A stretch of 45,855 nucleotides of DNA from a virus (IMGVR_UViG_2531839662_000038), one strand, 5' to 3'; counted from the stretch's first letter, positions 1,300-43,873 are shown. The notes: generated by a model not told the origin, from the sequence alone. Program-made: numbers and translations.

Positions 1300-1420
1300 A
1301 TGAAATAGAAAAATGAATCCGTTGAAGCCTGCTTTTTTATACTAAGTTGGCATTATAAAAAAGCATTGCTTATCAATTTGTTGCAACGAACAGGTCACTA
1401 TCAGTCAAAATAAAATCATT
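1300..1420. other. attL: Lambda-type attL (core GCTTTTTTATACTAA at 1331..1345 plus P' arm running to the int stop)
   Basis: Sequence 1331..1440 matches the remembered lambda attP core and P' arm; directly abuts int 3' end. Confidence 0.9.
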
Positions 1421-2489
1421 ATTTGATTTCAATTTTGTCCCACTCCCTGCCTCTGTCATCACGATACTGTGATGCCATGGTGTCCGACTTATGCCCGAGA
1501 AGATGTTGAGCAAACTTATCGCTTATCTGCTTCTCATAGAGTCTTGCAGACAAACTGCGCAACTCGTGAAAGGTAGGCGGATCCCCTTCGAAGGAAAGAC
1601 CTGATGCTTTTCGTGCGCGCATAAAATACCTTGATACTGTGCCGGATGAAAGCGGTTCGCGACGAGTAGATGCAATTATGGTTTCTCCGCCAAGAATCTC
1701 TTTGCATTTATCAAGTGTTTCCTTCATTGATATTCCGAGAGCATCAACATGCAATGCTGTTGGGATGGCAATTTTTACGCCTGTTTTGCTTTGCTCGACA
1801 TAAAGATATCCATCTACGATATCAGACCACTTCATTTCGCATAAATCACCAACTCGTTGCCCGGTAACAACAGCCAGTTCCATTGCAAGTCTGAGCCAAC
1901 ATGGTGATGATTCTGCTGCTTGATAAATTTTCAGGTATTCGTCAGCCGTAAGTCTTGATCTCCTTACCTCTGATTTTGCTGCGCGAGTGGCAGCGACAGG
2001 GTTTGTTGTTATATGGCCTTCAGCTATTGCCTCTCGGAATGCATCGCTCAGTGTTGATCTGATTAACTTGGCTGACGCCGCCTTGCCCTCGTCTATGTAT
2101 CCATTGAGCATTGCCGCAATTTCTTTTGTGGTGATGTCTTCAAGTGGAGCATCAGGCAGACCCCTCCTTATTGCTTTAATTTTGCTCATGTAATTTATGA
2201 GTGTCTTCTGCTTGATTCCTCTGCTGGCCAGGATTTTTTCGTAGCGATCAAGCCATGAATGTAACGTAACGGAATTATCACTGTTGATTCTCGCTGTCAG
2301 AGGCTTGTGTTTGTGTCCTGAAAATAACTCAATGTTGGCCTGTATAGCTTCAGTGATTGCGATTCGCCTGTCTCGGCCTAATCCAAACTCTTTACCCGTC
2401 CTTGGGTCCCTGTAGCAGTAATATCCATTGTTTCTTATATAAAGGTTAGGGGGTAAATCCCGGCGCTCATGACTTCGCCTTCTTCCCAT
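1419..2489 (-). CDS. int: Tyrosine integrase, lambda Int type
   Basis: 356-aa ORF starting MGRRRSHERRDLPPNLYIRNNGYYCYRDPRTGKEF, recognised as lambda Int; transcribed toward attL. Confidence 0.97.
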   Translation of the reverse strand: MGRRRSHERRDLPPNLYIRNNGYYCYRDPRTGKEFGLGRDRRIAITEAIQANIELFSGHKHKPLTARINSDNSVTLHSWLDRYEKILASRGIKQKTLINYMSKIKAIRRGLPDAPLEDITTKEIAAMLNGYIDEGKAASAKLIRSTLSDAFREAIAEGHITTNPVAATRAAKSEVRRSRLTADEYLKIYQAAESSPCWLRLAMELAVVTGQRVGDLCEMKWSDIVDGYLYVEQSKTGVKIAIPTALHVDALGISMKETLDKCKEILGGETIIASTRREPLSSGTVSRYFMRARKASGLSFEGDPPTFHELRSLSARLYEKQISDKFAQHLLGHKSDTMASQYRDDRGREWDKIEIK

Positions 2490-2685
2490 TTCTGATCCTC
2501 TTCAAAAGGCTACCTGTTATTGGTCGATTTAAGTCAACCTTTACTGCTGATTCGTGGAACAAATACTCTCTTCCGTCCTTAATCGGTGGTGGGAATATCC
2601 TGCACTCGCGTACCCATCGACGAACTGTTTCAAGGCTTCTTGGGCGCCGCTGGCGTGCGTTCCACTCCTGAAGTGTCAAGTACAT
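2467..2685 (-). CDS. xis: Excisionase, lambda Xis type
   Basis: 72-aa ORF MYLTLQEWNARQRRPRSLETVRRWVRE..., overlaps int start as in lambda. Confidence 0.95.
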   Translation of the reverse strand: MYLTLQEWNARQRRPRSLETVRRWVRECRIFPPPIKDGREYLFHESAVKVDLNRPITGSLLKRIRNGKKAKS

Positions 2686-2769
2686 CGCAAAGTCTCCGCA
2701 ATTACTCGCAAGGGAACGAGTAGTGGTTGATTTTCTCCAACAAAAAAGGAGCCGAAGCTCCTTTGATGA

Positions 2770-3393
2770 TTAAAATTCGAATTGTCTCGCCCGAAGGCTT
2801 TTCAACATTGGTCTTGCCCGTTCGAAAACGGCGCTTGTCTGGTCAAGTCGTGTCGCCTCCCTGAGCAGTACATCTCTGTTTTTCGTCACCGCATAGAAGG
2901 TTTCAAACGCAATGTCATACAGCTTACTCGCGTATGATGAGTTAAGTTCCTTCATTATCGGGTACAGGCGTTTGCAGATGTCCTGTGCATTCTCCATCTG
3001 TACCTGCATGTAGCAGAGGAGGATGATTTCCTCGTCTGTGAATTGCTGCGCTGGTTGCATGCTGCGAAGTTTCTTTTCGCACTCGATGAAGTATCGGCGT
3101 ATCTGGCGGCCTTTTTCGTTGCGCTCGACCATTGCCAGCTCTTTGGCTGTGTCGAGGGTGAGGTGGTAATCCTTGCGGTTGTGACCGCCTCTACCAGATG
3201 TTTGCTTTCCCAAATTGGAAAGCAAAATATAGTCTTGATTTTCAATGAATTCGTATTCTGAAATGCGATTTGTAATCCATGCCGCAAACACCTTTTTCAC
3301 GCCTAAAAAAGCATGCAGATTGCGGGCATTGCAGAGTAGGGCTGTTTCGTTGGCGATAGTGCCGTTGAATACGGGGATGAGTTGACTGGTCAT
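2770..3393 (-). CDS. Phage antirepressor-like protein (AntA/KilAC-type domain), accessory early-left gene
   Basis: 207-aa ORF; segment DYHLTLDTAKELAMVERNEKGRQIRRYFIE resembles the conserved antirepressor C-terminal motif; family call from memory only. Confidence 0.5.
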   Translation of the reverse strand: MTSQLIPVFNGTIANETALLCNARNLHAFLGVKKVFAAWITNRISEYEFIENQDYILLSNLGKQTSGRGGHNRKDYHLTLDTAKELAMVERNEKGRQIRRYFIECEKKLRSMQPAQQFTDEEIILLCYMQVQMENAQDICKRLYPIMKELNSSYASKLYDIAFETFYAVTKNRDVLLREATRLDQTSAVFERARPMLKSLRARQFEF

Positions 3394-3739
3394 TTTTATG
3401 TCCTTTGCATTTGTTCAGATAGCCCTGTGTTCAGCAGGGCGGTCAGGTACTTGAACACCGTGCAAAGTCGGCCCGTATCCTTAACCTTTCGGCTGTTTTT
3501 CGGTATACGCGCTACCCGACCATATCTGAGAAATGGACATAAAAAAGCCGCATGACTGACGGGTGCGGTTTCCGCTTTGCAAGGTGTGTTCAGCACCATG
3601 AAGCGGAATATAGCCCCGTTAATGCGGATTTGTCAAATCATGTAGGCCTTATCTTGCTGTAAGCCGCGCCATTCGGGCTTTTCCCCATATTTGGGGAAAA
3701 CTATCTGCGAATTATTCACCTTTGACGGCAAGTTGCAGG

Positions 3740-4357
3740 TTAGCCACGCTTAACCTCCTGCGGCGGTTCCGGTAGCGGCATCCAGTGAGTTGCTTGCTCA
3801 ATACCATTACCCGGCTTAATCGTTGCATCTCCGCGCCGAAAGGTGCTTCCGGTATAGCGTGCGGAGCATATTAGCGGTTCAACCAGAGAGCTATCGAAAT
3901 TCACCGAAATAAGCACGTTCTGGCCCTTTTCAGGCATTCGCTCACTACAGCTTATCCAACCATCCTTAATGCAATTACCTTGACTCTGAAGCATAGCGGC
4001 ACGACAGGCGTTCCAGCCTCTCACCTCTGCAATAGCGGCAACAGCATCAACCGCGTACATTTTAAGAGGGTTAGGCATTGGTTTTTCTTCCGGTACTACT
4101 GGAACGGGGGGAGCGGCGTAGACCTCAATAATTCCATTATCAATAGGCCATTCTCCATCCTTGAGGTAGTCACTTGCGCCGTCAACTTGCTGTTCTGCAA
4201 TGTGGAATGCACCTATTGGTTTTGCTTCCAGCGATGCCAGTGCAATTCGTGCCAGTTCTTCCGCTTCTTCTGCTGGCAGTACAACGTTGCTACCAGGTCC
4301 GTATGTTTCGCGCCACTGCTTGATTGTCAGTAGTCGCTCTTTGGTAATAGTGGTCAT
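3740..4357 (-). CDS. DUF551-family phage protein
   Basis: 205-aa ORF; C-terminal THWMPLPEPP motif typical of DUF551. Confidence 0.5.
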   Translation of the reverse strand: MTTITKERLLTIKQWRETYGPGSNVVLPAEEAEELARIALASLEAKPIGAFHIAEQQVDGASDYLKDGEWPIDNGIIEVYAAPPVPVVPEEKPMPNPLKMYAVDAVAAIAEVRGWNACRAAMLQSQGNCIKDGWISCSERMPEKGQNVLISVNFDSSLVEPLICSARYTGSTFRRGDATIKPGNGIEQATHWMPLPEPPQEVKRG

Positions 4358-4367
4358 AGGTTAGTCC

Positions 4368-4988
4368 TTAATCATCTGCTTGCAGTGGTGGTAAATCCGG
4401 CACTGTTACGCCAAACAATGCAGCCAGCGCACGATAGTTTTGCTCACTGTGATAGCGGCCTTTACAGCGAACCAGTTTTTCAGCGGCTGTAACAATCGAG
4501 CTTTGTTCTGCTATGCGCTTTTCTGAGGCTTCAAGTAACGCCTGCTTGTCGCGTAGTGCTTCTTCCAGTTCAGCAACATGGCATTCACTATCAATGAGGT
4601 TGTTCTCTGTTGCTTCCAGCTCAACACGCAGCTTCACTACCGTTAGCGCAATATCCTCGTTCTCCTGATCGCGGAGTTTGATGTATTGCTGGTTTCTTTC
4701 CCGTTCATCCAGCAGTGCCAGCACAGTAACAGGATTGGCTGCGGCGATGAATTCAGCATTGGCCTGCTGTTCCATTTGGAAATCTTCATCGAAACCGCTT
4801 TCAGGATGCACTCCTTCAATTCTGCAAATGGGAAGATATCCAACAACGTCACGATGAATTAGCGCATCATCACAATCAAATCGGCTCTCTCCATATTCTA
4901 GCGACCACACACCACACGTTGCTTTCTCTGCCTTTTCACGCAGTGCCTGATAATCAATCTGGCTCACTGGTTGCCTCCTTTGCGCCAC
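4368..4988 (-). CDS. Ead/Ea22-like protein
   Basis: 206-aa ORF with central coiled coil; resembles Ea22-family proteins of lambdoid early-left regions. Confidence 0.5.
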
Positions 4989-5141
4989 ATCGCATTCAGA
5001 TATTTGTTTTGATTCACTGACGGAAAAGAATTTCTCTTAAGTAATTCCTCTCTCGATGGCATTGGCTTTACGCGTTGGCGAATAATCATTTCTGCCGGAA
5101 GAATGCCGGGATTGTATGCAAGTCCTCTCATGGTAAATTCC

Positions 5142-5435
5142 TCAGTCATTACTGATAGCGCCATAGCGTGAGCGGTAATTACGCAGGCGCGGGTCAATTT
5201 CATGGAAGTGGGTATATGTGGCTTTGCGGAATGGTCGGATTGATGTCTGGTAAATTCGCTCGCGTTCTTCTTTCTCTGCAAGCCATATACAATGGCGAAA
5301 TTCCTTTTCCTCTTTCGTTTCCTGCGGTAGCGACATTATCCTGTCGTAGTTTTTCCTGAATTTATCCAGCACCTCCGATACGGAATTGCCGGAACAGCGG
5401 CGCGCGTCGTCCGCACCATACAGAGGCGCTGGCAT
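5142..5435 (-). CDS. Hypothetical early-left protein
   Basis: 97-aa ORF in operon context; the overlapping ORF 4964..5281 probably contributes only a short downstream gene (ATG at 5131 with GAGG Shine-Dalgarno). Confidence 0.4.
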
Positions 5436-5458
5436 AATGGGAGCCTTATTTTAAGTAA

Positions 5459-6046
5459 TCAGAAAGGAGGGTAATCGTTCTGGCTGTAACCATAATCATC
5501 TGCATGATTCTGGCTTACGTTTTTAGAGCGATTGTCTTTATCTTTGAGGCTGGCAACCATGTTGGCGATAGTTTCTGGTTGCTTGCCTTCCGCCTTTTCT
5601 TTAAGGGTTTGACCTGTTTGTGCAATAAACGGGATGCGTATTTCCATCTGGTAGCTGTCTGCGCCAGTCTTTTTGTTTGTGGTTAATACTTTCTGGAGCA
5701 CTAACCCGATTTTCTTTCCATGAAATTCAGGAGCAACAAATTTACTGGCGGAAACCATATGTTGCGTTAATTGTCCAATCCCGGCACACCCCATCATGGC
5801 GTGGACGACATTTGCGCCAAATTTATTTTCCGTTCCGTCATTTTTCTGAACACAGACGCTAAGATATTGGATTTTACGTCCGTCGTCGGATTCGCCAGAA
5901 AACTCAATAAATTTGGCTCCTTTTTCTGATTGCTTTAGTTCTGCTTCAGTAATGGTAATGATATGAGCGCCAGTTTCGTTAATAAAACCACCTTGCCCTG
6001 CGGTCAGTGCTGCTTCTTCGTTATAAGTAAAAATCACGTTGTTCAT
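5459..6046 (-). CDS. SSB-like protein (DUF669-type) partnered with Sak4
   Basis: 195-aa ORF; acidic/aromatic C-terminal tip (DDYGYSQNDYPPF) resembling the SSB C-terminal DDDIPF tail; immediately downstream of Sak4. Confidence 0.55.
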   Translation of the reverse strand: MNNVIFTYNEEAALTAGQGGFINETGAHIITITEAELKQSEKGAKFIEFSGESDDGRKIQYLSVCVQKNDGTENKFGANVVHAMMGCAGIGQLTQHMVSASKFVAPEFHGKKIGLVLQKVLTTNKKTGADSYQMEIRIPFIAQTGQTLKEKAEGKQPETIANMVASLKDKDNRSKNVSQNHADDYGYSQNDYPPF

Positions 6047-6723
6047 GCTGCGTTTTCCTTAATTTGATGAACATTATTGATGCCGTAGTAATCACAAACA
6101 GTGGCATCGACGAAAGAGAGATCGTTATCAATCTCATTGGAGTCAAACATTCCCATTGGGGATTTAACAGTGTCTGCACCGTTGTTTTTTGTGGTGAAAA
6201 AGAACTGGTCATCACGGGTAAGGGTGCGAAGAACTATAGTAAACATGCCTTCGACAGTGATTTTCTCGTCCAGCATTTTGCCGATAGTTTTCATTTTCAC
6301 GCGCCCCATAGGGGTTTCTTCGGTGTGTGCAAGAAAATAGACTCTCAGGTCATCAGGTGCATCCTGTGCAGCCTTAATCACCTCCCATGCGTGGCGGCCT
6401 ATCTCAGTAAATTTATCAAACGATTTTTCTTCTGAGCGGCGCATAAACTCATTGCTCATCACATACTGGAAGTCATCAACAATAACGATTCTTTTCCCGT
6501 ATTCGTGAGCACGCTTAATTACGGCAACTATTACGTCCCATTTGTCAGTGGTAACTACGGTTCCTTTTTTTGCTCTGGCATCCCATGCAAGCCAGTCTTT
6601 TGATTTAAATGGTAGCGGCTTGCCTATTGGTTTTATAAGTATTGCTTCCTCTGGATTGATATTTCTCATGCTGGTTGATTTTCCGGTGCCAGATTCACCG
6701 AGTATTAATGTCGCAGTTCCCAT
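6043..6723 (-). CDS. sak4: Sak4-type RecA-like single-strand annealing ATPase
   Basis: 226-aa ORF; Walker A GESGTGKST and Walker B IVIVDD; occupies the position of lambda Red genes. Confidence 0.7.
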   Translation of the reverse strand: MGTATLILGESGTGKSTSMRNINPEEAILIKPIGKPLPFKSKDWLAWDARAKKGTVVTTDKWDVIVAVIKRAHEYGKRIVIVDDFQYVMSNEFMRRSEEKSFDKFTEIGRHAWEVIKAAQDAPDDLRVYFLAHTEETPMGRVKMKTIGKMLDEKITVEGMFTIVLRTLTRDDQFFFTTKNNGADTVKSPMGMFDSNEIDNDLSFVDATVCDYYGINNVHQIKENAA

Positions 6724-6731
6724 AATTTGCC

Positions 6732-6932
6732 TCAGAATGGTAATTCGGATGGGACGGAAAGAAATTCGCGCTCATTCATGCGCTCTCTTTGAGCCTGCCA
6801 TAAACAAAGTTGTTTCTTTGATTTATCTCCCGCTTTACGCCAGTAACGAGCCTCAGCAATGTGATATTCTCTTTTTAATCGACTTAATTCTGGAGTTTTC
6901 GCCAGTTCTACCGGAATCATTTTGACCTCCAT
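6732..6932 (-). CDS. Hypothetical small protein
   Basis: 66-aa ORF between Sak4 and kil. Confidence 0.4.
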   Translation of the reverse strand: MEVKMIPVELAKTPELSRLKREYHIAEARYWRKAGDKSKKQLCLWQAQRERMNEREFLSVPSELPF

Positions 6933-7030
6933 TTTCTGTAGGCTTCGATGGCCTCACGAAACATCTTTTCATCGCCAATAAAAGTGGCGATAGTGAATTT
7001 AGTCTGGATAGCCATAAGTGTTTGATCCAT
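6917..7030 (-). CDS. kil: Kil-like host-killing protein
   Basis: ORF 6917..7156 contains MDQTLMAIQTKFTIATFIGDEKMFREAIEAYRKWRSK, recognised as lambda-Kil-like; overlaps cIII by about 30 nt in another frame as in lambda; start codon uncertain. Confidence 0.55.
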   Translation of the reverse strand: MDQTLMAIQTKFTIATFIGDEKMFREAIEAYRKWRSK

Positions 7031-7163
7031 TTTTTGGGACTCCTGGCTGATTAAGTACGTCGATGAGTCGTTTCCATCCGTCACGTAATTTGCGGGTGAT
7101 TCGTTCAAGTAAAGATTCGGAAGGGCAGCCAGCAACAGGCCACCCTGCAATGGCATATTGCAT
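6999..7163 (-). CDS. cIII: CIII, inhibitor of FtsH (stabilises CII)
   Basis: Internal 54-aa segment MQYAIAGWPVAGCPSESLLERITRKLRDGWKRLIDVLNQPGVPKNGSNTYGYPD within ORF 6999..7223, recognised as lambda CIII. Confidence 0.9.
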   Translation of the reverse strand: MQYAIAGWPVAGCPSESLLERITRKLRDGWKRLIDVLNQPGVPKNGSNTYGYPD

Positions 7164-7223
7164 GGTGTGCTCCTTATTTATACATAACGAAAACGCCTCG
7201 AGTGAAGCGTTATTGGTATGCAT

Positions 7224-7251
7224 ATAAAAAGGCCCTCACACTGGAGGGCAA
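7224..7251 (-). terminator. Intrinsic terminator between N and cIII (tL1-like)
   Basis: Plus-strand GCCCTC-ACACTG-GAGGGC preceded by AAAA, i.e. hairpin plus U-run on the minus strand. Confidence 0.45.
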
Positions 7252-7466
7252 AGAAGATTTCCAATAATCAGAACAAGTCGGCTCCTGTTTAGTTACGAGC
7301 GACATTGCTCCGTGTATTCACTCGTTGGAATGAATACACAGTGCAGTGTTTATTCGTATGCCTGTCTTTTAACCACATCAGGCTCGGTGGTTCTCGTGTA
7401 CCCCTACAGCGAGAAATCGGATAAACTCTATTCACCCCCTACAGAGAGAATGATGGAGATTCACCG

Positions 7467-8006
7467 ATGAGTAACTGGTGGCAGGAACTATTACGTTTCT
7501 TCCTGCGTGGTCTTACGCTACAACAGTTAATTCATATGCTTATTATTTTAATTGCCTTGATAATAATCACCCCTGCATCAATTAAAGAGTGGGTAGATAT
7601 AAGGAACCCAGAAATACTTCCAGATCACTGGATGTATTACGCAATGCTTTTGTGTATCAGTTATGTTCTGAACAGGGTGATGGAGTTTATATTTCTGGCA
7701 TCTTCAGACAGATATAAAAAATATCTCAGTAAGAGAGATGAGGCTAAAGTAATTGTGGAGACTGAGCGCCTGTTCAATTCTCTGAGTATTCAGGAAAAAG
7801 AGGTTTTAGCATTTGCTGTTATGGCAAATAACAAAATCGTACTTAAGCACGGCGATCCGGTCGCTTTATCTCTTATGAGAAAAGGCCTTCTCCATCGCTC
7901 AGGTGTGACTTACAGCGCGTCAGGTAAAGAGAAATTTGTTATACCTGACGTCTGGTTCCATGAGTGTTATATGCGCTTTGCTGGTAAAGCTGATGAGCTA
8001 ATTTAG
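7467..8006 (+). CDS. sieB: Superinfection exclusion protein B-like membrane protein
   Basis: 179-aa ORF with two predicted transmembrane helices; located between cIII and N on the opposite strand, as sieB is in lambda/P22; good Shine-Dalgarno context. Confidence 0.5.
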   Translation: MSNWWQELLRFFLRGLTLQQLIHMLIILIALIIITPASIKEWVDIRNPEILPDHWMYYAMLLCISYVLNRVMEFIFLASSDRYKKYLSKRDEAKVIVETERLFNSLSIQEKEVLAFAVMANNKIVLKHGDPVALSLMRKGLLHRSGVTYSASGKEKFVIPDVWFHECYMRFAGKADELI

Positions 8007-8027
8007 TTCCTCGACGGCGGGGGATCG

Positions 8028-8300
8028 TCACCTCGCCGTCAGTTGTTTTGATTTCCGGTAGCCTGCCGCGTAAATAGCTACGTTCGGAAGACAAGTTGAA
8101 CCTTCATATTTTCTGGTCAACGTTGTCAGTGTTATTACTTCTGCTCTCATTGCTGGTTTGCGCTTGCATTGCAAGACCACTCGTGAGGGGGTTGGCCTGT
8201 GTAGCTTGTCGGAGCTAATCGACTCCTGACTTTGCAGATTTGCGCGACGAGCTCTACGGCGAGAAGCTGCGGTGCCTTTAAATTCTGTTTTTCTGGACAT
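8028..8300 (-). CDS. N: N-type antitermination protein (P22 gene 24 / phage 21 N family)
   Basis: 90 aa from MSRKTEFKGTAASRRRARRANLQ (arginine-rich motif); C-terminus VAIYAAGYRKSKQLTAR matches remembered P22 gp24 end; GGAGG Shine-Dalgarno before ATG at 8300. Confidence 0.75.
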   Translation of the reverse strand: MSRKTEFKGTAASRRRARRANLQSQESISSDKLHRPTPSRVVLQCKRKPAMRAEVITLTTLTRKYEGSTCLPNVAIYAAGYRKSKQLTAR

Positions 8301-8325
8301 AGATTCCTCCCGAATAAACTCTGGC

Positions 8326-8373
8326 GATGCAATCCCGAAGCTACTCCTGAGAGGGTTGCTTCGGCATTGCATC
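8326..8373 (-). promoter_or_regulatory. Long hairpin in the N leader (RNase III processing site-like)
   Basis: 16-bp inverted repeat with one mismatch (GATGCAATCCCGAAGC / GCTTCGGCATTGCATC) between nutL and the N start. Confidence 0.5.
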
Positions 8374-8417
8374 CCACAGCTTATGTGGTTGGGTGATCTG
8401 GCTTTTCAGCCACGTAG

Positions 8418-8446
8418 TCGAGTGTTCGACGTTGTTTAAAGAGCCT
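8418..8446 (-). promoter_or_regulatory. nutL: nutL candidate (boxA-like GGCTCTTTAAACAAC plus short boxB-like hairpin TCGAACACTCGA on the minus strand)
   Basis: boxA-like CGCTCTT-type motif on the transcribed strand upstream of N; the same architecture recurs at 10932..10959 (nutR). Confidence 0.45.
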
Positions 8447-8479
8447 GCCAGTCTGTTCCGTTTGGCTTACAGCGTCCTG

Positions 8480-8540
8480 CTGATGAGTTAACTTTATCGA
8501 AATGATAAATTAATGGCAATAGCAAAATGATAAATTGTTT
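8480..8540. promoter_or_regulatory. OL/pL operator-promoter region
   Basis: Palindrome TTTATCGAAATGATAAA (8493..8509) and second ATGATAAAT site (8527..8535); same half-site family as in OR. Confidence 0.5.
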
Positions 8541-8711
8541 TAGTTTTCAAATATCCTGTTGATTATTATGGTTTTTTATTTGATTGCAGGAATTTATCAG
8601 AAGGAATAAAGAGACTTGAGGGGGATCAGAATTGCGCGTTTTAGTGAGTTGTATCTGTTTATTTTTCAACAAATACAATCGATTATGTGTTTTTAGGTGG
8701 GCGAACGTTGG

Positions 8712-8740
8712 GCAAAGAAAACCCGGCACTGAGGCCGGGT
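8712..8740 (-). terminator. Intrinsic terminator ending the cI-linked leftward operon
   Basis: Plus-strand AAAGAAAA then CCCGGC-ACTGAG-GCCGGG, i.e. GC hairpin plus U-run on the minus strand, 5 nt after the ORF-B stop. Confidence 0.6.
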
Positions 8741-8745
8741 GTGTA

Positions 8746-9429
8746 TTAGGGGGTTGAGACTCCAGAGAGCAATCCGTAGATTTTATATACAGCAAATGCT
8801 AATGCTGGCAAGCCAAGGGCCCATTTGATTATATCAAGCTTAACATCACTAAGCTTACCTTCTAACTTTGCCTCTTGAACAGAAAGAGCTGCATCGATCT
8901 TTTTTGATTGGGAGTCAAGGGCACTCTCAATTCTACTCGATTGTATGTCCAGACGACTGTTGATTTGTTCGTGCTGAGTAACAACTAAATGCTTCATCTC
9001 CTTTATATCTGAAGCCATTAGTTCACGCCATTTGGCCATATCAGCCTGCATTTTTGAGGCCACTGCATCCACTTCAGCTTTATTTGCCTTCAGAAGTGCC
9101 TGTATTTCGTTTCTGCTCAAATCGGACATTGCGGTTCCCTGTATAGGAGTTTCCTCGTACGGTGGGATAACATTAGATTGTCCTTTACAATCGGCAACCC
9201 CTCCTTTATCTACGATTGTAGCAGTTAGCTGGGAATTGGTCGCATCATCCACCATGTTTTTTGGTGAATAAGAGGAAATAGGCGTAGAAAACAGATTACC
9301 TTTTGCTGTTTCCATGAACATCATGAAATCGCGAGTATTAACGTTATTCAGGGAAACTTGCAGTGGTTTAACAATACTTGATGTTTTGTAAGTAATAGTT
9401 AAATCACCTACTTCTTCCGGTTGTTGCAT
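8746..9429 (-). CDS. Unrecognised coiled-coil protein with C-terminal hydrophobic helix (ORF-B of the cI-linked cassette)
   Basis: 227-aa ORF; extended heptad-like region (EIQALLKANKAEVDAVASKMQADMAKWRELM...) and C-terminal WALGLPALAFAVYKIYGLL; start overlaps ORF-A stop (TAATG). Confidence 0.6.
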   Translation of the reverse strand: MQQPEEVGDLTITYKTSSIVKPLQVSLNNVNTRDFMMFMETAKGNLFSTPISSYSPKNMVDDATNSQLTATIVDKGGVADCKGQSNVIPPYEETPIQGTAMSDLSRNEIQALLKANKAEVDAVASKMQADMAKWRELMASDIKEMKHLVVTQHEQINSRLDIQSSRIESALDSQSKKIDAALSVQEAKLEGKLSDVKLDIIKWALGLPALAFAVYKIYGLLSGVSTP

Positions 9430-9749
9430 TACGACTTCGCTCCATTAGAGTTTTGTGCCTCTAATTGTTCGAAAAGAAGAACTATATTCTCCTGAAGAGC
9501 CTTTAGTTGTGCCATTGGCATTATCACAGTGCATTGCTGATTGAGTTCATTTACAGAGCCTATCTGCATATTCGCTCTACCTGGTTGATCTGGTATATCA
9601 TTTTGGGATAGTACCGCAGGTATTGACTTGTTTGCGATAAAATGTATACAAATGAGATTTTTTTCCGCTCCCGGTAGTGGAGCAAAACTAGCGAAGTCCG
9701 CATAGGTTTCAATATAATCCACAGATGGTTTAATTTTGACCGGTTCCAT
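9429..9749 (-). CDS. Unrecognised small protein (ORF-A of the cI-linked cassette)
   Basis: ORF track gives 9429..9764 with a TTG start; ATG at 9749 (MEPVKIKP...) has a GAGAGG Shine-Dalgarno and is the likelier start; AT-rich codon usage. Confidence 0.55.
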   Translation of the reverse strand: MEPVKIKPSVDYIETYADFASFAPLPGAEKNLICIHFIANKSIPAVLSQNDIPDQPGRANMQIGSVNELNQQCTVIMPMAQLKALQENIVLLFEQLEAQNSNGAKS

Positions 9750-9872
9750 AACGCCTCTCATCAAATATTGTAGGTTTTTTAATTCAATGTGTTAAATGTT
9801 GGTGGTGTGTTATTTAAAGTTATTTTGACATCCTCCACGCCCTGAAGGACGGGGCTTGTCACGTACTTGAAG

Positions 9873-10577: not shown

Positions 10578-10599
10578 CCCACGATTCTCCCTCTATTTA

Positions 10600-10690
10600 G
10601 TAAATGGATAAATACGCATTTTGATAAATCTCCATTGCAGTTTATTTATCAAGATGGTAAAGTTGCTCTGTGTGATAAACGGAGGCACTA
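10600..10690. promoter_or_regulatory. OR/pR/pRM operator-promoter region
   Basis: Repeated GATAAAT / ATTTATC half-sites at 10607..10613, 10621..10629, 10644..10652 and 10672..10679 between divergent cI and cro-like genes. Confidence 0.55.
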
Positions 10691-10924
10691 ATGAGTAATG
10701 AACTACTACGCTGGCGAAAAGAGGCTTCTAGTGAGGAATGGAAGCGACTCGCCGCATTAGCGAATACTTCAGTTGGCTATCTTGATCAGATTGCATATGG
10801 GTTTCGAAGAGCTTCCCCAGATAAAGCGAATGCAATCGAAGAAGCCACTCGTAATTTCACGGGTTATAAACCTGTGAAAAAGGAAAATCTGGTGTTCGTA
10901 TCGCGTAGAGCATCAGCAGCATAA
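10691..10924 (+). CDS. cro: Cro-like early regulator
   Basis: 77-aa ORF immediately right of OR with GGAGG Shine-Dalgarno; position-based call; sequence not a lambda Cro. Confidence 0.55.
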   Translation: MSNELLRWRKEASSEEWKRLAALANTSVGYLDQIAYGFRRASPDKANAIEEATRNFTGYKPVKKENLVFVSRRASAA

Positions 10925-36319: not shown

Positions 36320-36649
36320 TTAGTCATCCATGGATGGATTGAGCTTATCTCGTGTTGATGTGGCAATTTTACCAACATTTTTCAACCAAGATTTTAAGAA
36401 GGATATGTCGTCCTTAATATCATGAATATCCTCATTCTTTATACGATCAACCTTATCCTCTAGGCTCTCTATAGAACGCTCAATGCTAGACAGAGAGATT
36501 TTTAAGTCTCCTTGCTCACGTTCCAGTGAGGATTTGAGAGCACAATATTCGTTTTCTAGAATTCCTATTTTTTTTGTTAGAGAGTGCATTCGATACTCAT
36601 ACACCAAACTAGAAACGACTAATGCAGCCAACAGAAACCATTCAAGCAC
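36320..36649 (-). CDS. Unrecognised membrane protein with N-terminal TM helix and coiled coil (immI-region moron)
   Basis: 109-aa ORF; hydrophobic N-terminus WFLLAALVVSSLVY then heptad-rich region; convergent with gene 16. Confidence 0.5.
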   Translation of the reverse strand: MLEWFLLAALVVSSLVYEYRMHSLTKKIGILENEYCALKSSLEREQGDLKISLSSIERSIESLEDKVDRIKNEDIHDIKDDISFLKSWLKNVGKIATSTRDKLNPSMDD

Positions 36650-37017
36650 ACCAACCTCCTTAGTTTTGCGCAGGATACCAGATGATACTTTATTGGTGGA
36701 GTGGTGTGTGAAAACGTGTCAACGACAAACCATCCACAACTTGGGCGAATGATTTAGCAAAAAGTGCTATTTTTGGTGTTTGGTGTCATAGAAAAGTGAA
36801 TAGCTCACTTTTCAACATTGCATGAAACTTGCAGGAAATGTGACATTACCTTATAGGTAACTTCGGCGAAAATGCAGTAAATGTGAAATGTAATGATTTA
36901 AACGTGTCGATAAAGTGGTTGTAAGTTAGCCTCTGAAGGATTGATGACAGCTTTGTTATGGTATTAAATGCAACTTGACACAGTTGTATACATAGCTGCG
37001 GCTATCAAGATGGAGGT

Positions 37018-37467
37018 ATGTTTATGCTCACTTGTTTTGATGTCGCCGACTACTTCTTGGCGCATTGCGATGAAGAAAGTGGCGACATTATCTCTAACCT
37101 AAAAATTCAGAAGTTGACGTATTATGCCCAAGGGTTTTCTCTGGTTCTTCTGGGTAAGCCGCTATTTAATGAGAAAATTGAAGCCTGGATGCATGGGCCA
37201 GTAGTTCCTGAATTGTATCGTAAATATAGGGACTGTGGTAACGGAGCTTTACCTGCGCCAGAAAACTTTGACGCTAAAAAATTCAGTGAAGATGAAATTG
37301 AATTGCTGGATGAGGTGTATAAAGTTTATGGTCAGTTTTCTGCCTGGAAACTGCGCAATATGACTCACGAAGAGCAGCCATGGAAAGATGCTTACATTGA
37401 GGGTGCGGTTAGCCAAGAAATCACACTTGATTCTATGAAAGGTTTTTTCAAAACGTTAATTAACTGA
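37018..37467 (+). CDS. Panacea-domain (DUF4065, SocA/GepA-like) protein, PanA-antitoxin-like
   Basis: 149-aa ORF; motif KIQKLTYYAQGFSLVLLGKPLFNEKIEAWMHGPVVPELY typical of DUF4065. Confidence 0.65.
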   Translation: MFMLTCFDVADYFLAHCDEESGDIISNLKIQKLTYYAQGFSLVLLGKPLFNEKIEAWMHGPVVPELYRKYRDCGNGALPAPENFDAKKFSEDEIELLDEVYKVYGQFSAWKLRNMTHEEQPWKDAYIEGAVSQEITLDSMKGFFKTLIN

Positions 37468-37472
37468 CGTGT

Positions 37473-37895
37473 ATGTCTAGAGTTAAGGGAAGAATAAAAC
37501 AGAGGGATAAAGAGAGCTCTGCTACTGTTGGCCTCTCTATCCATCACGAATCTCATGATGTAGACAAAAGTCCGCCTGTATTTTCTCTTAGATACCTACA
37601 AAAGGGGTATTGCCTAGATTGCTGCCAAAAGCATGAAAAGGCAGCATTTGCAGATAGGCTGTTCAGGTTAAGTCGGATGTCATGGGATGAGATACGAAAA
37701 TCTGATAAACACGGGCTTGGGACGGAAAAAATTGCCAGAAACGCGATAAAAGCTCCGATTCCTAAGCATGTTACTCAAGATGTGGATTTCATTGCGTTCA
37801 GATTTTGCTCTAAGGCACCTATGGTTGGTTATAAGATAGGAGCCACTTTTTATGTCTTATGGCTCGACAGGGAGTTCAAGCTATACAAGCACTAA
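37473..37895 (+). CDS. Unrecognised protein, operon partner of the Panacea-domain gene (candidate toxin/effector)
   Basis: 140-aa ORF 5 nt after the upstream stop; basic; no family recognised; followed by a strong terminator. Confidence 0.5.
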   Translation: MSRVKGRIKQRDKESSATVGLSIHHESHDVDKSPPVFSLRYLQKGYCLDCCQKHEKAAFADRLFRLSRMSWDEIRKSDKHGLGTEKIARNAIKAPIPKHVTQDVDFIAFRFCSKAPMVGYKIGATFYVLWLDREFKLYKH

Positions 37896-37896
37896 T

Positions 37897-37924
37897 AAAA
37901 CCCACCGTCAGGTGGGTTTTTTTG
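37897..37924 (+). terminator. Intrinsic terminator after the Panacea operon
   Basis: AAACCCACC-GTCA-GGTGGGTTTTTTTGTT. Confidence 0.75.
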
Positions 37925-37939
37925 TTGGAGATAAAATGG

Positions 37940-38143
37940 TTAACCAAATCGATCCTTAAAGCGTCTATCGCTGTTGCGTCTCTCCATTTTACTGTTGCAG
38001 TACGGACAAAGATGCTGTTTCTTTCCATCGATAGTCCATGTGAAGTACTTTTTCTTAAATCCAGCACCACAGATATCGCAACTTCTTGGTTTAAACATAC
38101 TGGCTATGAAGATAAGAACAACAAATCCTATGATCCATTCCAT
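37940..38143 (-). CDS. Small membrane protein with zinc-ribbon (CxxC...CxxC)
   Basis: 67-aa ORF; TM helix WIIGFVVLIFIASMF; CDICG...CPYC. Confidence 0.4.
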   Translation of the reverse strand: MEWIIGFVVLIFIASMFKPRSCDICGAGFKKKYFTWTIDGKKQHLCPYCNSKMERRNSDRRFKDRFG

Positions 38144-38479
38144 ATCATGTACCTGTTTTAACTTTATTTTTTGATTTTTAGGGATTAATCAGAAACTTTA
38201 TCTTGCGATTAAGCAAAGCTACTAGCTAACAAAAGAGTGCGTATACAATCAATCGTTTCACATCAACCTCAACAAGGAGAAATCATGACCATAGAAGAAC
38301 GCCTGAACAACATTGAGTTGAACCAAACCCTGCTTGACCAGCGACTTTCAGATCTTGAGCTTAAAGATCTGGATGCGCAAATATCAGAAGCAGAAGCCAA
38401 GCTCTCCAGCTTAAACCACCGCAAGAAGCAAATCCGCAACAGAATTACTCAGGGACGCGGAAGCCGTTGAAATCATAGT

Positions 38480-38797
38480 CTATTTTTTCTCAGAGCTCAT
38501 ATTGTAATAGGTGGTATAAATAGAGATTGATTTCTGACATGCTTCAAGAAATTGCTGCGGAGTCATCCCGAGCCTTGCTTGCTCTGTAGTAAGGAATCTC
38601 TGTAAGAATTCATTCCCACCTGGCATGTTTGTAGATTCTTGGAATATTGCCATTTGTTTGATTGCACCACACATACCAGCCATTTTAGAAGCTATCATGA
38701 GGCCTTGTATTTCATCAAAACTGCTATCGTCTGATTTTGTTTCTGCGTTAGCTATGCTCGAGAGACACAGGAGCAATAGGATAGCGATACGTTTCAT
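38480..38797 (-). CDS. Small secreted/periplasmic protein with signal peptide
   Basis: 105-aa ORF; signal peptide MKRIAILLLLCLSSIANA; start overlaps mnt stop (ATGA). Confidence 0.5.
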   Translation of the reverse strand: MKRIAILLLLCLSSIANAETKSDDSSFDEIQGLMIASKMAGMCGAIKQMAIFQESTNMPGGNEFLQRFLTTEQARLGMTPQQFLEACQKSISIYTTYYNMSSEKK

Positions 38798-39045
38798 TTT
38801 TCACCATTGCCATGCATACATTTTAACTTCTCAACATCATGCTCAAGCTCTATCAGTCGCGATGCTATAGTTGCAAGATCTAGTGCTTGAATGTGTTTGT
38901 TTTTTTCGGTCCATGCTTCAAGTGCTGCGACCATCTCAGCATTTAATGAACGAGAATTAGCCTCAGCCAGTTCAATAAGACGTTCCTTTATCTCTACAGG
39001 AAGCCTCAGATTCACTTGAGGGTTTTTGTACTTACGATCAGACAT
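38794..39045 (-). CDS. mnt: Mnt-like ribbon-helix-helix repressor
   Basis: 83 aa; NLRLPVEIKERLIELAEANSRSLNAEMV aligns with remembered P22 Mnt NFRMPMEVREKLKFRAEANGRSMNSELL. Confidence 0.7.
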   Translation of the reverse strand: MSDRKYKNPQVNLRLPVEIKERLIELAEANSRSLNAEMVAALEAWTEKNKHIQALDLATIASRLIELEHDVEKLKCMHGNGEK

Positions 39046-39148
39046 CGGCGCATCCTGAATAATTTTTTACCACAGGATATGTAGGTATCTATTGACTATC
39101 AATGCGTACCTAAATACTATGTATGCGTACCACATACAAAGGAGCAAA
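39046..39148. promoter_or_regulatory. Divergent mnt/arc-ant promoter-operator region
   Basis: Inverted TAGGTA/TACCTA and repeated GCGTACC motifs between divergent RHH repressor genes. Confidence 0.4.
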
Positions 39149-39295
39149 AATGAAAGTTAAGACATTAAGGATGCCAGAATGGCTGGAAAAGGCTTTGGAG
39201 CAGTCCGCGAAAAAGGATGATCGGTCGTTCAGTAATGAGGTATTGAGGAGACTAAAGGAGTCAGTAGCTAAGGATGGAATTGTTTGTCCAGAATG
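39149..39295 (+). CDS. arc: Arc-like ribbon-helix-helix repressor
   Basis: 48-aa ORF below the ORF-track cut-off (MKVKTLRMPEWLEKALEQSAKKDDRSFSNEVLRRLKESV...), RHH pattern; position between mnt and ant. Confidence 0.65.
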
Positions 39296-39362
39296 AGTAA
39301 AGCCCAAGCTATTGCGAGTAGCTCGGGCTTAAATCGCCAGTAAATTTTGAGGAAAAACTGAC

Positions 39363-40292
39363 ATGAAAAGTATAGCAACAGCAGTATCTACTATCAACGT
39401 GCCATTCCACGGCGCAGAGCTTTATGTCGTCAATCACAACGGTGAGCCGTACACCCCAATGAAACCTATCGTTGAAGGTATGGGTATGGATTGGGCTTCA
39501 CAGTTTACGAAAATAAAGCAACGGTTTAAAACCTCCATTGTGAAAATCACAATGCAGCTTCCTGGTGATGAACAGTGCCGTGAGATTATTTGTTTGGCAC
39601 TTCGCAAACTTGCTGGCTGGCTGCAAACCATCAGCCCTAACAAAGTCCGCACTGAAATCCGCGACAAGGTAATCCAGTATCAGGAAGAGTGTGACGATGT
39701 GCTCTACGAATACTGGACTAAAGGCCATGTAGTTAACCCGCGCAAAGCTAAAAAGGCGTTGCCGGGTAAAATCACCACTGAACAGCAGGAAGCCATTAAA
39801 CAACTCGTCATGAGTCGCGGTCAGTCTCTGCCAAAGGAAAAACAGGCGAAGGCAATGATTACCATGTGGTCGTCACTGAAATCTCATTTTGGGTGTTCAT
39901 ACAAAGAAATCAGCGATGAGCAGTTTACCGAAGCTCTGTCACTTGCAGCTCGCGTTCCGCTTGAAGGCGAGTTAATCGGCAAACAAGAGAAGAAAGCAAA
40001 CGAGCTTTCTGCAAAAGAAGCAAACAGCCTTGTATGGTTATGGGATTATGCCAACCGCTCACAGGCATTATTCCGCGAACTGTATCCGGCGCTAAAACAA
40101 ATTCAATCGAACTATTCAGGCAGATGCTACGACTACGGTCATGAGTTCTCGTATGTTATCGGAATGGCGAGAGACGTTTTAATCAATCACACACGAGATG
40201 TTGATATTAATGAGCCAGACGGACCAACGAATCTTTCCGCATGGATGAGACTTAAGAATAAAGAATTACCTCCTTCAGTACATAACTACTGA
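39363..40292 (+). CDS. ant: Antirepressor Ant
   Basis: 309-aa ORF directly after arc with GAGG Shine-Dalgarno; position as P22 ant. Confidence 0.65.
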
Positions 40293-40309
40293 CAGATAAC
40301 CAACGCAAC

Positions 40310-40336
40310 GACCCAGCTTCGGCTGGGTTTTTTTAT
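40310..40336 (+). terminator. Intrinsic terminator after ant
   Basis: ACCCAGC-TTCG-GCTGGGTTTTTTT. Confidence 0.75.
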
Positions 40337-40392
40337 GCCCAAAATTCACCGTGGCCACGCTGCGGCGATTCATTGTATCTGGAGCAAATTAA

Positions 40393-42387
40393 ATGACAGA
40401 CATTACAGCCAATGTGATCGTATCGATGCCTTCGCAACTTTTCACTATGGCGCGTTCTTTTAAAGCGGTTGCCAATGGCAAAATTTATATCGGTAAAATT
40501 GACACTGACCCGGTGAATCCTGAAAACCAGATTCAGGTTTATGTGGAAAACGAAGACGGTTCTCACGTTCCTGTTTCGCAACCAATCATCATTAACGCTG
40601 CTGGTTATCCTGTATATAACGGACAGATTGCCAAATTCGTAACTGTGCAAGGCCATTCTATGGCTGTTTATGATGCGTACGGTGCGCAGCAGTTCTATTT
40701 TCCTAACGTCCTGAAGTATGACCCTGACCAATTAAGGCAAGAATTAGCTTCTGACAGAGGAGCAACATTATCATTAAGTCAGATAGCTACTTCTTACGGC
40801 CTTGATTTCTCGTTAGGCGGTGTATGGCGGGAGGGGGCGTTATCTAATGTTGATAACTGGTGGTGGTATAATAATAAAATCTACACCGGTGGTAGCGGCA
40901 CTCTTCCGTCATCTCCTGCTTTGCCATGGTACGAAGTGACGGTAGCAGATTATATTTCTGTTGCTCAATTTTTCCCCATTACTGGTGATCCAGCGGCAGA
41001 TAACTCAGCTAGCTTTAATGCTGCTGCAGCAGTTGCTTTATCGGCAGGAAAGAGGCTGTTTGTCCCTGCAGGAACTTACTATGTTAAGTCACCAGTTGAT
41101 TTAACAATAGGCACTGTTGACCTATTCGGGGATGGCGTTGAGAAGTCATTCATTATTGCGGGGAGTGGGTTCACTGGAGAGACAGTTGTCAACATGTACT
41201 ACGAAACTGACTCTATAAGACGTAGCACATCTATCTCTCACGTTACAGTTGATGGGAACAACATCGCCAACTATGCTTGCCGAATTCAATATGTTCACCT
41301 AGGAAGAACCCATAATTGTCGTTTCATCAATGGCGTGGTGGCGAACTTCTATACTATAAACGACTGGCTTAATACCTATGATTGCTGTTCTTTTGTTCCT
41401 GCGCCAAATCGCGGAGTTCACCTTGCTGGGGCTAACAACCGCGTAACGTTCAATAACTGTGGATTTGCATCAAATAAGGTCGGTGAATATGCCTTTTATG
41501 CTTCTGGTACTTCCCCTATTGAAGGTTTAAGCTTAATTGGATGTGACCTTGAGTTCGGCATTGGGCATGGCATGTACTTAAATACCCGAGTGACCAATAT
41601 TGTTGGCGGGTACTATGGCGAAGCGATACAAGGCGATATCTTTACGGTTCCAGATGGAGTAGTAAAAATAAGCGGTGTAAATGCTTTTGTAGGATATTAC
41701 AATGAGGGAGGAAGGTTTGTTGTTCTTGACAATGATGCTGTAGTTAAGGTTGATAGTTGCTGGATTGCAGATCAGGGCAACTTTAAACTTTCATTACTTG
41801 CATCAAGCACTGACAACAGGGCTCATGCTGTATTTACTAATTGTTATATTGGTGCAACTGTGTCTGGCCCACAAGTTATGGAAGGAGATTGTTTAGGCAA
41901 GATTAATATGAGGACGTTTGCAGAAAGCAGAGCAATCCTTTATACAATGAACAATACTGGTAATACAGTAACCAGAAGCAGATACAACTCAATAGGAGCA
42001 AAAATAACCATTAATACCGTAACGACCCCTAGTTCTAACAAGCTATCACTTAATACTAAGATAAAAGACAGAGGGTGGAAGGTTAACGACCGGGTATACT
42101 TAATTGTTACTTATGAGAGTAATGTTGATATAAATATTTATTTAAGCAGTTCGATATATGCTGCATCGGATGCAACGCTATTTGGAACTTTACCATCAAC
42201 AAATGGTTCTTTATCTACGTGTTATATTGCTAATAATATTATTCCGGAAAATACATCTGAGATATTCGAGTTTTATGTAAATGGCGCTGGTGTTGGCGAT
42301 TACTTTGCTATTCAGGATGTTACTCTTACAGACAGGTCATTCACTTTCAGTGGAACAACTATGACCACTTTTGCTAAGGCTGAATAA
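40393..42387 (+). CDS. Tailspike: P22-type N-terminal head-binding domain fused to a divergent receptor-binding domain
   Basis: 664-aa ORF; first ~115 aa ([59 protein letters not shown]...) match remembered P22 gp9 N-terminus; remainder unrelated to P22. Confidence 0.85.
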
Positions 42388-42392
42388 TTAAC

Positions 42393-42420
42393 AGAAAAGG
42401 TGGATCACTCCACCTTTTCA
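42393..42420. terminator. Bidirectional hairpin terminator between convergent tailspike and integrase genes
   Basis: AAGGTGGA-TCAC-TCCACCTT flanked by A-run and T-run; the integrase stop codon lies in the loop. Confidence 0.65.
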
Positions 42421-43562
42421 TCAAGCCAGTCCGCCCACCACTGCATCATTTCTCTGCGCTTATCGAGATACTGAGCATGGTTGTAAATCCCACGCACAGA
42501 TCCGCCGTTGGCATGTGCCAGTTGCACTTCAATAGCATCAGCAGGCCATTCGTGCTCGTTCGTAATCGTGCTGAATTCATGCCTGAATCCGTGACCGCTT
42601 TCCAGACCTTCATAGCCGATTTGTTTGATCACAAGCAGTACAGCGTTCTCGCAAATTGGCTTCTTCTTATCGTTGCGCCCGGCAAAAACAAACTCTGATA
42701 CTGGTTTGGTGATTGAGCTTAGCGTAGTGAGAAGTTCAACCACCTGGTCTGACATAGGAACCACATGAATTTTGCGTCCCTTCATCACACTGGCGTCGAT
42801 GGTGATAATCCTGTTTTCAAAATCGACGTTCTTCCATAGCATGGAACGAAGCTCTTTCGTTCTTAGGGCTGTGTAGCGTAAAACTTTGGTCGCAATGAGC
42901 GATACGATGCTTCCTGAAAATGTTGCCAGTGCTTTGTTGAATGCCGGGATCTGGTCTGCAGGAAGAAACGGGAAGTTCTTCTTGCGGTATCCCTTCATGG
43001 CGTCAGCAAGGTCAGGTGCCGGGTTATATTTAGCCCTGCCGGTGACAATAGCGTAACGGAAAACCTCGCCGCATCTTCTGCGTGCTTTGTTGGCTCGCTC
43101 CATTGCACCGCGATCTTCAAATCTGCGGATTACTTCCAGCAGTTGCATCGGCTCAATATCCTGAATCTCAAGACCGCCGATGATGGGTAAAATGTCGTCA
43201 TCAAACATTTTTGCAAGTTCAGTCGCATACCCTACTGACCAGACTTGCTTCTTGTGTTCGTACCATTCCTTGTAAATTGCACTAAAGGAATTGTTGTTAG
43301 ACGAAGCCTTTTTCGCTTTTACCGGATCGATGCCAACCGAGATGTCTTTCCTCGCAGTCCATGCTTTATCCCTTGCCTCCTGCAAAGTCATAAGCGGATA
43401 TTTTCCTACGGTCAGGATTTTCTCCTTACCGTCAATCTTGTAGCGAAGCTGCCATACCTTTTTCCCTGACACAGGGACATAAAGGTACAGGCCATTACCA
43501 TCGAGTAGGCGGTATGGTTTTTCTTTCGGCTTTGCTGCTTCAATCTGCTTAACGGTGAGCAT
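42405..43562 (-). CDS. intS: Tyrosine integrase, P4/IntS type with N-terminal arm-binding domain
   Basis: 385 aa from MLTVKQIEAAKPKEKPYRLLDGNGLYLYV (the ORF track extends to a GTG at 43598); catalytic region with HGFRH and a C-terminal Tyr; lies about 160 bp from argW. Confidence 0.85.
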   Translation of the reverse strand: MLTVKQIEAAKPKEKPYRLLDGNGLYLYVPVSGKKVWQLRYKIDGKEKILTVGKYPLMTLQEARDKAWTARKDISVGIDPVKAKKASSNNNSFSAIYKEWYEHKKQVWSVGYATELAKMFDDDILPIIGGLEIQDIEPMQLLEVIRRFEDRGAMERANKARRRCGEVFRYAIVTGRAKYNPAPDLADAMKGYRKKNFPFLPADQIPAFNKALATFSGSIVSLIATKVLRYTALRTKELRSMLWKNVDFENRIITIDASVMKGRKIHVVPMSDQVVELLTTLSSITKPVSEFVFAGRNDKKKPICENAVLLVIKQIGYEGLESGHGFRHEFSTITNEHEWPADAIEVQLAHANGGSVRGIYNHAQYLDKRREMMQWWADWLDEKVE

Positions 43563-43723
43563 GGGTAAAAATCCGGTGGGTAAAATTATTTTATCCACTT
43601 TTTACCCGTCATGGAGTGCGGCTGTCAACGATCTGACGCGAACCATTACGAACTGTGAATCTACGGAAGGCTTGATATTCAGGGGATTTTGCGGACTGGT
43701 ACGGATGGGAGCGAACTGATAAA

Positions 43724-43798
43724 TGGTGTCCCCTGCAGGAATCGAACCTGCAATTAGCCCTTAGGAGGGGCTCGTTATATCCATTTAACTAAGAGGAC
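43724..43798 (-). tRNA. argW: tRNA-Arg (anticodon CCU), argW
   Basis: 75-nt sequence on the minus strand: GTCCTCTTAGTTAAATGGATATAACGAGCCCCTCCTAAGGGCTAATTGCAGGTTCGATTCCTGCAGGGGACACCA, cloverleaf-compatible, anticodon loop CUCCUAA. Confidence 0.9.
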
Positions 43799-43873
43799 AA
43801 TGCGGCATGAGTATACCCGCTAATGGAGTGCGGGGTAAGTACGCTGCCGCTCGATTGCTTAAACCCTCGCCAT

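Follow-up and report, generated by a model that had tools for sequence, protein, structure and literature searches.

The 45,855-nucleotide sequence IMGVR_UViG_2531839662_000038, called the window here and always taken at its full length, is laid out as a single 41-kb prophage that lies between two unrelated pairs of host genes. Its left bound is formed by ybhC, the left attachment site (attL) of phage lambda and lambda-type int and xis genes, and its right bound consists, in this order, of a tailspike gene, a hairpin, an IntS-type integrase gene, argW, yfdC and mlaA. Comparison with finished genomes identified the window as a recombinant of two different prophages with the exchange located within positions 42097–42424, and this holds irrespective of whether the joint was made by a chromosomal inversion or by a swap during assembly. 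That the window represents one of the two junctions of an approximately 2-Mb, terminus-centred inversion between the two prophages is regarded as probable, by a narrow measure. The original prediction, made from the sequence alone, had proposed an inter-prophage inversion or a chimeric assembly. All the features on which it was built (ybhC, attL, int/xis, tailspike, intS, argW, yfdC and mlaA) are present where it had placed them, both parental prophages were found in inverted orientation in the strain UMNF18, and misassembly stays the alternative, with somewhat less than an even chance.

E. coli UMNF18 is the nearest finished genome for both junctions. In this chromosome, 2.09 Mb separate the two flanks: the junction at ybhC maps to 0.79 Mb (plus strand) and the one at argW to 2.88 Mb (minus strand), and each locus carries a prophage of its own. 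These two separate prophages, A and B, are oriented in opposite directions at a distance of 2.05 Mb. Prophage A, between ybhC and ybhB, is a full P22-like phage with lambda int/xis at the left and a lambdoid early region, and its right end consists of the tailspike gene followed by 86 bp from the 3' end of intS, the lambda P arm and the core, beyond which lies ybhB. Prophage B, between argW and dsdC, had been expected to be a full P22-like partner, but is in this closest relative a degraded 14-kb remnant of the HK620/KplE1 type with the order argW-intS-tailspike-mnt-ejection genes-cI-recT-torI-dsdC, running opposite to A. Both share an inverted segment of about 1.6 kb that comprises 1.5 kb of the tailspike 3' part, a putative terminator and the 86-bp intS relic kept by A. 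The features concerned are the following.

Positions 40393–42387, plus strand: tailspike gene, 664 amino acids, with a Pfam Head_binding domain and a pectate-lyase-like domain.
Positions 40897–42488: segment shared by prophages A and B, made up of 1.5 kb of the tailspike 3' part, the terminator and 84 bp at the very end of intS.
Positions 42097–42424: exchange-point interval of 328 bp, in which the parental markers switch both in the window and in the reciprocal contig described below.

Base by base, the window equals UMNF18 prophage A from position 1 to 42424 with one single nucleotide polymorphism (position 8787) in 42 kb, apart from two insertion sequence (IS) elements that it does not have, and from 42425 to 45855 it equals the UMNF18 argW locus with zero differences. 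The two tailspike copies of UMNF18 differ at 35 positions, all of them at or before 40896, and the N-terminal part of the window tailspike up to this position is of the prophage A type. Beyond 40896 the two copies differ only at 42096 and at 42423–42449, and the homology stops at 42488. The window carries the A-type base at 42096, which is the last A-specific marker, and B-type bases from 42425 onwards. The interval in between covers the final 291 bp of the tailspike gene, the terminator and 20 bp at the beginning of the intS relic, so that the exchange lies at the 3' ends of these two genes and not in a shared nin/Q/lysis segment, as had been proposed.

Phage A descends from an IntS-type phage that took up the lambda module and left an intS stub behind, and homology between A and B exists because of this exchange of one integration module for the other. 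Two integration modules occur together in a natural phage genome, JAXLKJ010000001.1 (positions 17715–21407 of the stretch examined), in which a complete intS, the arm region and the 16-nt core are followed by an acyltransferase gene, and the lambda right attachment site (attR) adjoins ybhB. Such a dual-module state is a plausible ancestor state for the 86-bp intS relic of phage A. At the very boundary of the repeat (window positions 42421–42426), UMNF18 itself departs from other strains by 2 bp in each copy, the two differences compensating each other: its A copy reads ATCAAAATCC and other strains read ATCAATCC, and its B copy reads ATCGCC and the others as well as the window read ATCAAGCC. 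Because of the difference in the B copy, intS is annotated as frameshifted in UMNF18. These differences look like a consensus artefact from mixed reads of the two copies rather than true mutations.

The original prediction also implied that the reciprocal hybrid should exist in the same genome, and it was indeed found. The draft assembly GCA_000194535.2 is probably the source of the window. Its 151.7-kb contig AFAB02000211.1, which gave an exact match to the tailspike protein, is identical to the window at 100.000% over 30393–45855, the part that was compared, with A at 42096, and by its coordinates the contig could accommodate the window in full. The same assembly contains another contig, AFAB02000119.1 (927 kb), with the order dsdA-dsdX-dsdC-torI-prophage B-mnt-tailspike-YbhB-BioA-BioB. 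It equals UMNF18 prophage B at 99.99–100% through the N-terminal part of the B-type tailspike, has G at 42096, and is of the A type from 42425 on, where it continues through the intS relic and lambda attR to ybhB with 99.92% identity to UMNF18 prophage A. At the level of the assembly, this contig therefore complements the window exactly, and its parents switch in the same 328-bp interval. Since both the lambda attR and the second 16-nt IntS core are located on AFAB02000119.1, the attachment sites of each prophage are split between the two junctions.

Two insertions were seen on this contig. An IS3-family element lies at 11792–13102 (stretch coordinates) in the gp16-like gene for ejection, and the tailspike gene is interrupted at 16399–17164 by a divergent IS1-family element with the 8-bp duplication CAACCGCG, which corresponds to window positions 41436–41443. 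Contigs of many related draft assemblies start or stop at the site of the latter element, so this insertion is shared by a clone.

According to the inversion model, RecA or a phage recombinase would have exchanged the two copies within 42097–42424 in an ancestor of the sequenced strain. This exchange would have inverted a segment of about 2.05 Mb with dif almost in its centre, and the products would be two hybrid prophages, the window being one and the order dsdC-torI-B-tailspike-intS relic-lambda attR-ybhB the other. In UMNF18 coordinates, which apply to all distances to dif given here and are not those of the strain itself, dif is located at 1,886,109–1,886,136 and the exchange intervals at about 837.1 kb and 2,882.6 kb. 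The breakpoints hence lie on opposite replichores and roughly equidistant from dif, with arms of about 1,049 and 997 kb, which bears out the symmetry around the terminus that had been assumed from the genetic map. The centre of the 2.05-Mb segment is about 26 kb away from dif, and dif would be shifted by about 52 kb, approximately 1% of the genome. A terminus-symmetric inversion preserves the orientation of genes relative to replication and belongs to the tolerated kind.

The inversion is further supported by the length of both junction contigs (152 and 927 kb), by the exact reciprocity of the junctions and by the distinct bases at 42096. The length of the contigs and the distinct bases also speak against an assembly artefact, which is a serious possibility, though one placed a little below an even chance. 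In that case, the strain would be collinear like UMNF18, and the assembler would have swapped the exits of the two-copy repeat at 41444–42488 and thereby created two chimeric contigs. Both contigs traverse IS elements, however, and the source contig runs through the IS1 element between yfdF and fadL with 100% identity to finished UMNF18 over 7,380 bp. This correct traversal implies that the assembly had long-range linking data that span repeats, and such data should be able to bridge a 1-kb repeat as well. In addition, the two contigs have distinct bases at 42096, each in agreement with its left flank, which would not be so after a simple collapse of the repeat.

Several findings weigh against the inversion and in favour of the artefact. 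The source is a draft whole-genome shotgun assembly of at least 211 contigs and is known here from its assembled contigs alone. The switch sits inside a 328-bp stretch between markers in which the copies do not differ at all, and because of this identity a symmetric swap of paths at an X-shaped repeat in the assembly graph would give the same reciprocal pair of junctions. Logan short-read contigs of the segment show all four marker combinations across many runs, which indicates that mis-phasing is common here, and other draft assemblies break their contigs at the same repeat. UMNF18 itself is collinear, clone-mates that share the IS insertions also appear collinear, and the compensating 2-bp indels of UMNF18 at the repeat boundary suggest consensus trouble in assemblies of that period. 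AARERU010000111.1, an IS-bounded contig of 5.95 kb, joins a B-type C-terminal part (G at 42096) to intS-argW. Finally, neither hybrid junction was found among 5,426 complete E. coli genomes, but this says little because only UMNF18 has both parental copies among them.

Some further sequences were considered and set aside. Logan contigs of 1,053 bp had been candidates for phasing evidence; the phase of the window occurs in at least 20 runs, the other three phases occur too, and all these contigs begin exactly at the IS fork (41436), stop where the homology ends (42488) and thus represent a consensus of the collapsed repeat. LVOS01000126.1, AAXDPD010000045.1 and ERR4899628 were tried as independent hybrids, as they carry ant-tailspike beside intS-argW, but all have G at 42096. 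LVOS01000126.1 has neither the left-end protein of the window nor its helicase and is a different argW prophage with only the tailspike end in common, and the far ends of AAXDPD010000045.1 and ERR4899628 lie outside the view, so that they give no evidence for a hybrid. LVOS01000126.1 is also a deletion remnant, in which a gene for replication protein O is joined (874–875) at window position 31266, and DBKRGN010000067.1 shows an internal deletion that joins replication genes (1081–1082) at window position 31473. The late regions of these two argW remnants are 99.99% identical to that of phage A, which indicates that the A-type late module occurs in a native IntS/argW context too.

Two other origins were weighed. 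A dual-module phage could have integrated at lambda attB, and IntS could then have recombined its internal attP with argW and inverted 2 Mb. Dual-module prophages do exist, as JAXLKJ010000001.1 shows with its full intS and its lambda attR against ybhB. A site-specific event of this kind predicts the switch at the 16-nt core (43723–43738), whereas the markers put it at 42097–42424, about 1.3 kb off. Moreover, the intS gene of the window is the resident argW allele, with zero differences from UMNF18 prophage B, and not the allele of the A relic, and the reciprocal junction keeps the whole of prophage B plus the intS relic instead of a bare attR. This origin is very improbable and was rejected on the positions of the markers.

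Least probable of all is one ordinary prophage with two integrases that integrated once. Both ends of the window resemble clean int-proximal attachment junctions, which speaks for such an element. Nonetheless, the flanks are 2 Mb apart and mutually inverted in every reference genome examined, and the lambda attR and the second IntS core are missing from the window and lie on the other contig. The analysis of the flanks refuted this explanation.

Large inversions between prophages are known, and the inversion proposed here would be a fresh instance of a known mechanism. In E. coli O157:H7, prophage-bounded megabase inversions biased towards the terminus have been reported, including inversions present in minority sub-populations in culture (Fitzgerald et al. 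2021, PMC8743559), and prophage-bounded large inversions in O157:H7 are also attributed to Iguchi et al. 2006, as cited in that paper. As in the window and its complement, the O157:H7 inversions involve inverted, nearly identical prophage segments on both sides of the terminus and result in a megabase-scale inversion with hybrid prophages at both junctions (PMC8743559). The repeat here is shorter (about 1–1.6 kb with a 328-bp exchange stretch) than the repeats of at least 5 kb mapped in the O157 study, and the partners are a prophage at lambda attB and an argW remnant instead of Stx-type phages. The inverted segment of about 2.05 Mb in UMNF18 coordinates, known from the assembly only, compares with a maximum of 1.4 Mb in O157 (PMC8743559). 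Inversions mediated by IS elements in the long-term evolution experiment with E. coli likewise used inverted repeats of about 1 kb (PMC4173774), with the difference that those repeats are IS elements and the repeat here is a fragment of a phage gene. Unusual in the present case are only the short repeat, the sharply resolved exchange interval and the combination of the lambda attB and argW loci.

The argW end of the window contains the following features.

Positions 42394–42419: hairpin between the convergent tailspike and intS genes, with the stem formed by 42394–42404 and 42409–42419 and runs of A and T on its sides.
Positions 42405–43562, minus strand: intS, the intact IntS/P4-type integrase gene of the argW prophage (Pfam Arm-DNA-bind_3 and Phage_integrase).
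Positions 43563–43738: IntS-type attL, consisting of the arm region upstream of intS and the 16-nt core ATGGTGTCCCCTGCAG at 43723–43738.
Positions 43724–43798, minus strand: argW, an intact tRNA-Arg(CCT) gene as identified by ARAGORN.
Positions 43874–44806, minus strand: yfdC, host flank of the argW locus.
Positions 45100–45855, plus strand: mlaA, host flank of the argW locus.

The IntS core overlaps the 3' end of argW, and intS starts 161 bp from this intact tRNA gene. A second copy of the core was not found in the window and is located between dsdC and torI on the reciprocal contig. In prophages with the integration module of KplE1 (CPS-53), HK620, Sf6 and CUS-3, the integrase gene lies at the argW end and torI, which encodes the recombination directionality factor, at the far end near dsdC (Panis et al. 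2010, PMC2951348). This layout is also that of the window at its right end: argW and intS have the same orientation, the spacer of about 160 bp contains attL, which lies over the intS promoter region with its 16-nt core at the tRNA 3' end, and the tailspike or late end abuts the intS 3' end (PMC2951348). In the finished and collinear genomes ET245 and VG48B2, intS is likewise at the tRNA end, the tailspike gene lies against its 3' end and torI is next to dsdC. The convergence of tailspike and integrase, which the original prediction had counted as an anomaly, belongs to the normal gene order of prophages of the HK620/Sf6/KplE1 type at argW, as the same arrangement occurs in three collinear finished genomes and in PMC2951348. 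The sole abnormal feature is the connection of this argW end to a prophage that has lambda attL at ybhC as its opposite end. Unlike in KplE1-type prophages, attR and torI are here on the reciprocal junction about 2 Mb away; neither torI nor attR was found at the far end of the window prophage, and the torI region of the remnant at argW has no counterpart in the window.

The stop codons of the tailspike gene and intS are separated by 17 nt (42388–42404), in which a 17-bp hairpin had been described. The gap of this size and the hairpin were both found, but the hairpin is longer than the gap and reaches into the last codons of intS. It has an 11-bp stem and a predicted free energy of -16.7 kcal/mol (z = -4.4), and probably functions as a bidirectional terminator.

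At the opposite end, the features are the following.

Positions 1–1284, minus strand: ybhC, the host gene that flanks lambda attB on its gal side, with 100% identity to UMNF18 ybhC.
Positions 1285–1418, plus strand: lambda attL with bacterial arm, core (1331–1345) and P' arm, as judged by inspection of the sequence.
Positions 1419–2489, minus strand: int, the lambda-type integrase gene of prophage A (Pfam Arm-DNA-bind_1 and Phage_integrase).
Positions 2467–2685, minus strand: xis, a lambda-type excisionase gene (Pfam Exc, E = 3e-40), annotated as excisionase in UMNF18.

The 15-bp lambda core GCTTTTTTATACTAA occurs in a single copy in the window and in 0 of 100 shuffled sequences. With the bacterial arm, the 15-bp core and the P' arm adjoining int and xis, this end has the structure of a canonical lambda-type attL. 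The window matches lambda (J02459, 27724–29105) over 1331–2712 with 98.8% DNA identity, int and xis included, and the match starts precisely at the attL core; the int gene of prophage A shares 98.8% DNA identity with lambda int. The module of attL, int and xis is thus the same as that of phage lambda, but is attached to the late region of a P22-like podovirus and not to that of lambda. The attR counterpart (P arm, core and B') was not found at the other end of the prophage, and the window has one core only. In contrast to an integrated lambda, the attR partner would be separated from attL by the inversion.

If the inversion is real, about 2 Mb would lie between the attL and the attR of each integrase, the two sites would be inverted relative to each other, and neither prophage could excise as a circle by its own system, because the attR of A, and equally the partner site of IntS/TorI, would be far off and inverted. 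Recombination between an inverted pair of attL and attR would return the 2-Mb segment to its earlier orientation instead. It is conceivable, yet improbable, that the inversion can be flipped by the phage recombinases or that the locked-in prophage A carries out lateral transduction. In the first case, induction of lambda Int/Xis or of IntS/TorI would re-invert 2 Mb rather than excise a phage, so that one locus would regain its attB and phage A would come to lie within the other prophage. In the second case, prophage A, packaging by the headful mechanism, would replicate in place and package the argW-mlaA side.

A true inversion would mean that a 1-kb relic of an earlier module exchange later served as the substrate for a megabase, terminus-centred inversion, and that this event stranded two prophages by parting each integrase from one of its attachment sites. 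If it is an artefact, the analysis pinpoints a specific error in a public draft assembly. In the scanning of genomes, one prophage with two integrases and two host loci is a reliable sign of an inter-prophage rearrangement or a mis-join, and a tailspike gene convergent on intS signals nothing, since this is normal at argW. A search of the literature on UMNF18 together with inversion, or on the AFAB accession, returned nothing relevant.

Between its two ends, the window carries the body of prophage A.

Positions 2770–21670: lambdoid portion of prophage A with the early, immunity, replication, nin, Q and lysis regions, collinear with the prophage that UMNF18 carries between ybhC and ybhB.
Positions 22350–36319, plus strand: P22-like part of prophage A with genes for packaging, the head and DNA ejection, according to the UMNF18 annotation and Pfam.
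Positions 37018–40292: P22 immI-like region with a Panacea-domain gene, arc/mnt-like genes and the antirepressor gene ant (39363–40292).

Prophage A looks intact in the window, judged from an IS-free sequence and complete late genes. The ISVsa5 and IS1203 insertions of UMNF18 are absent, and sieB (7467–8006) and the DnaB-type helicase gene (12604–13980), which are broken by these elements in UMNF18, are whole. The IS-free form of sieB and the helicase gene adjoining ybhC is frequent in draft assemblies (about 80–100 index blocks), and the window is 100% identical to the draft contig AASQCE010000025.1 over positions 1–23980. The late module contains the Pfam families of terminase, P22 portal, coat, gp4, gp10, gp7, gp20-like and gp16, and together with the P22 head-binding domain of the tailspike this identifies it as that of a P22-like podovirus of the HK620/Sf6/CUS-3 group. 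The phages closest to the late region are E212 and CUS-3, with 95–97% identity over 60–66% of it.

Further genes of prophage A were noted. Two genes for proteins of 227 and 106 amino acids (8746–9764) lie directly 3' of the cI-like repressor gene, in the position of lambda rexAB; a role in exclusion or defence is a guess. The 227-amino-acid protein is extremely common (1,236 index blocks) across lambdoid prophages with many different integrases. The single nucleotide polymorphism at 8787 falls into the region of this gene, and as the form in the window is the common one (1,236 blocks), it is uninformative. Two HNH/NUMOD4-type endonuclease genes among the nin genes (14664–15266 and 16493–17059) probably encode homing endonucleases. 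Between the ejection genes and arc/ant, the Panacea-domain (SocA-like antitoxin) gene and two small downstream open reading frames (37018–38161) may constitute toxin-antitoxin or defence cargo.

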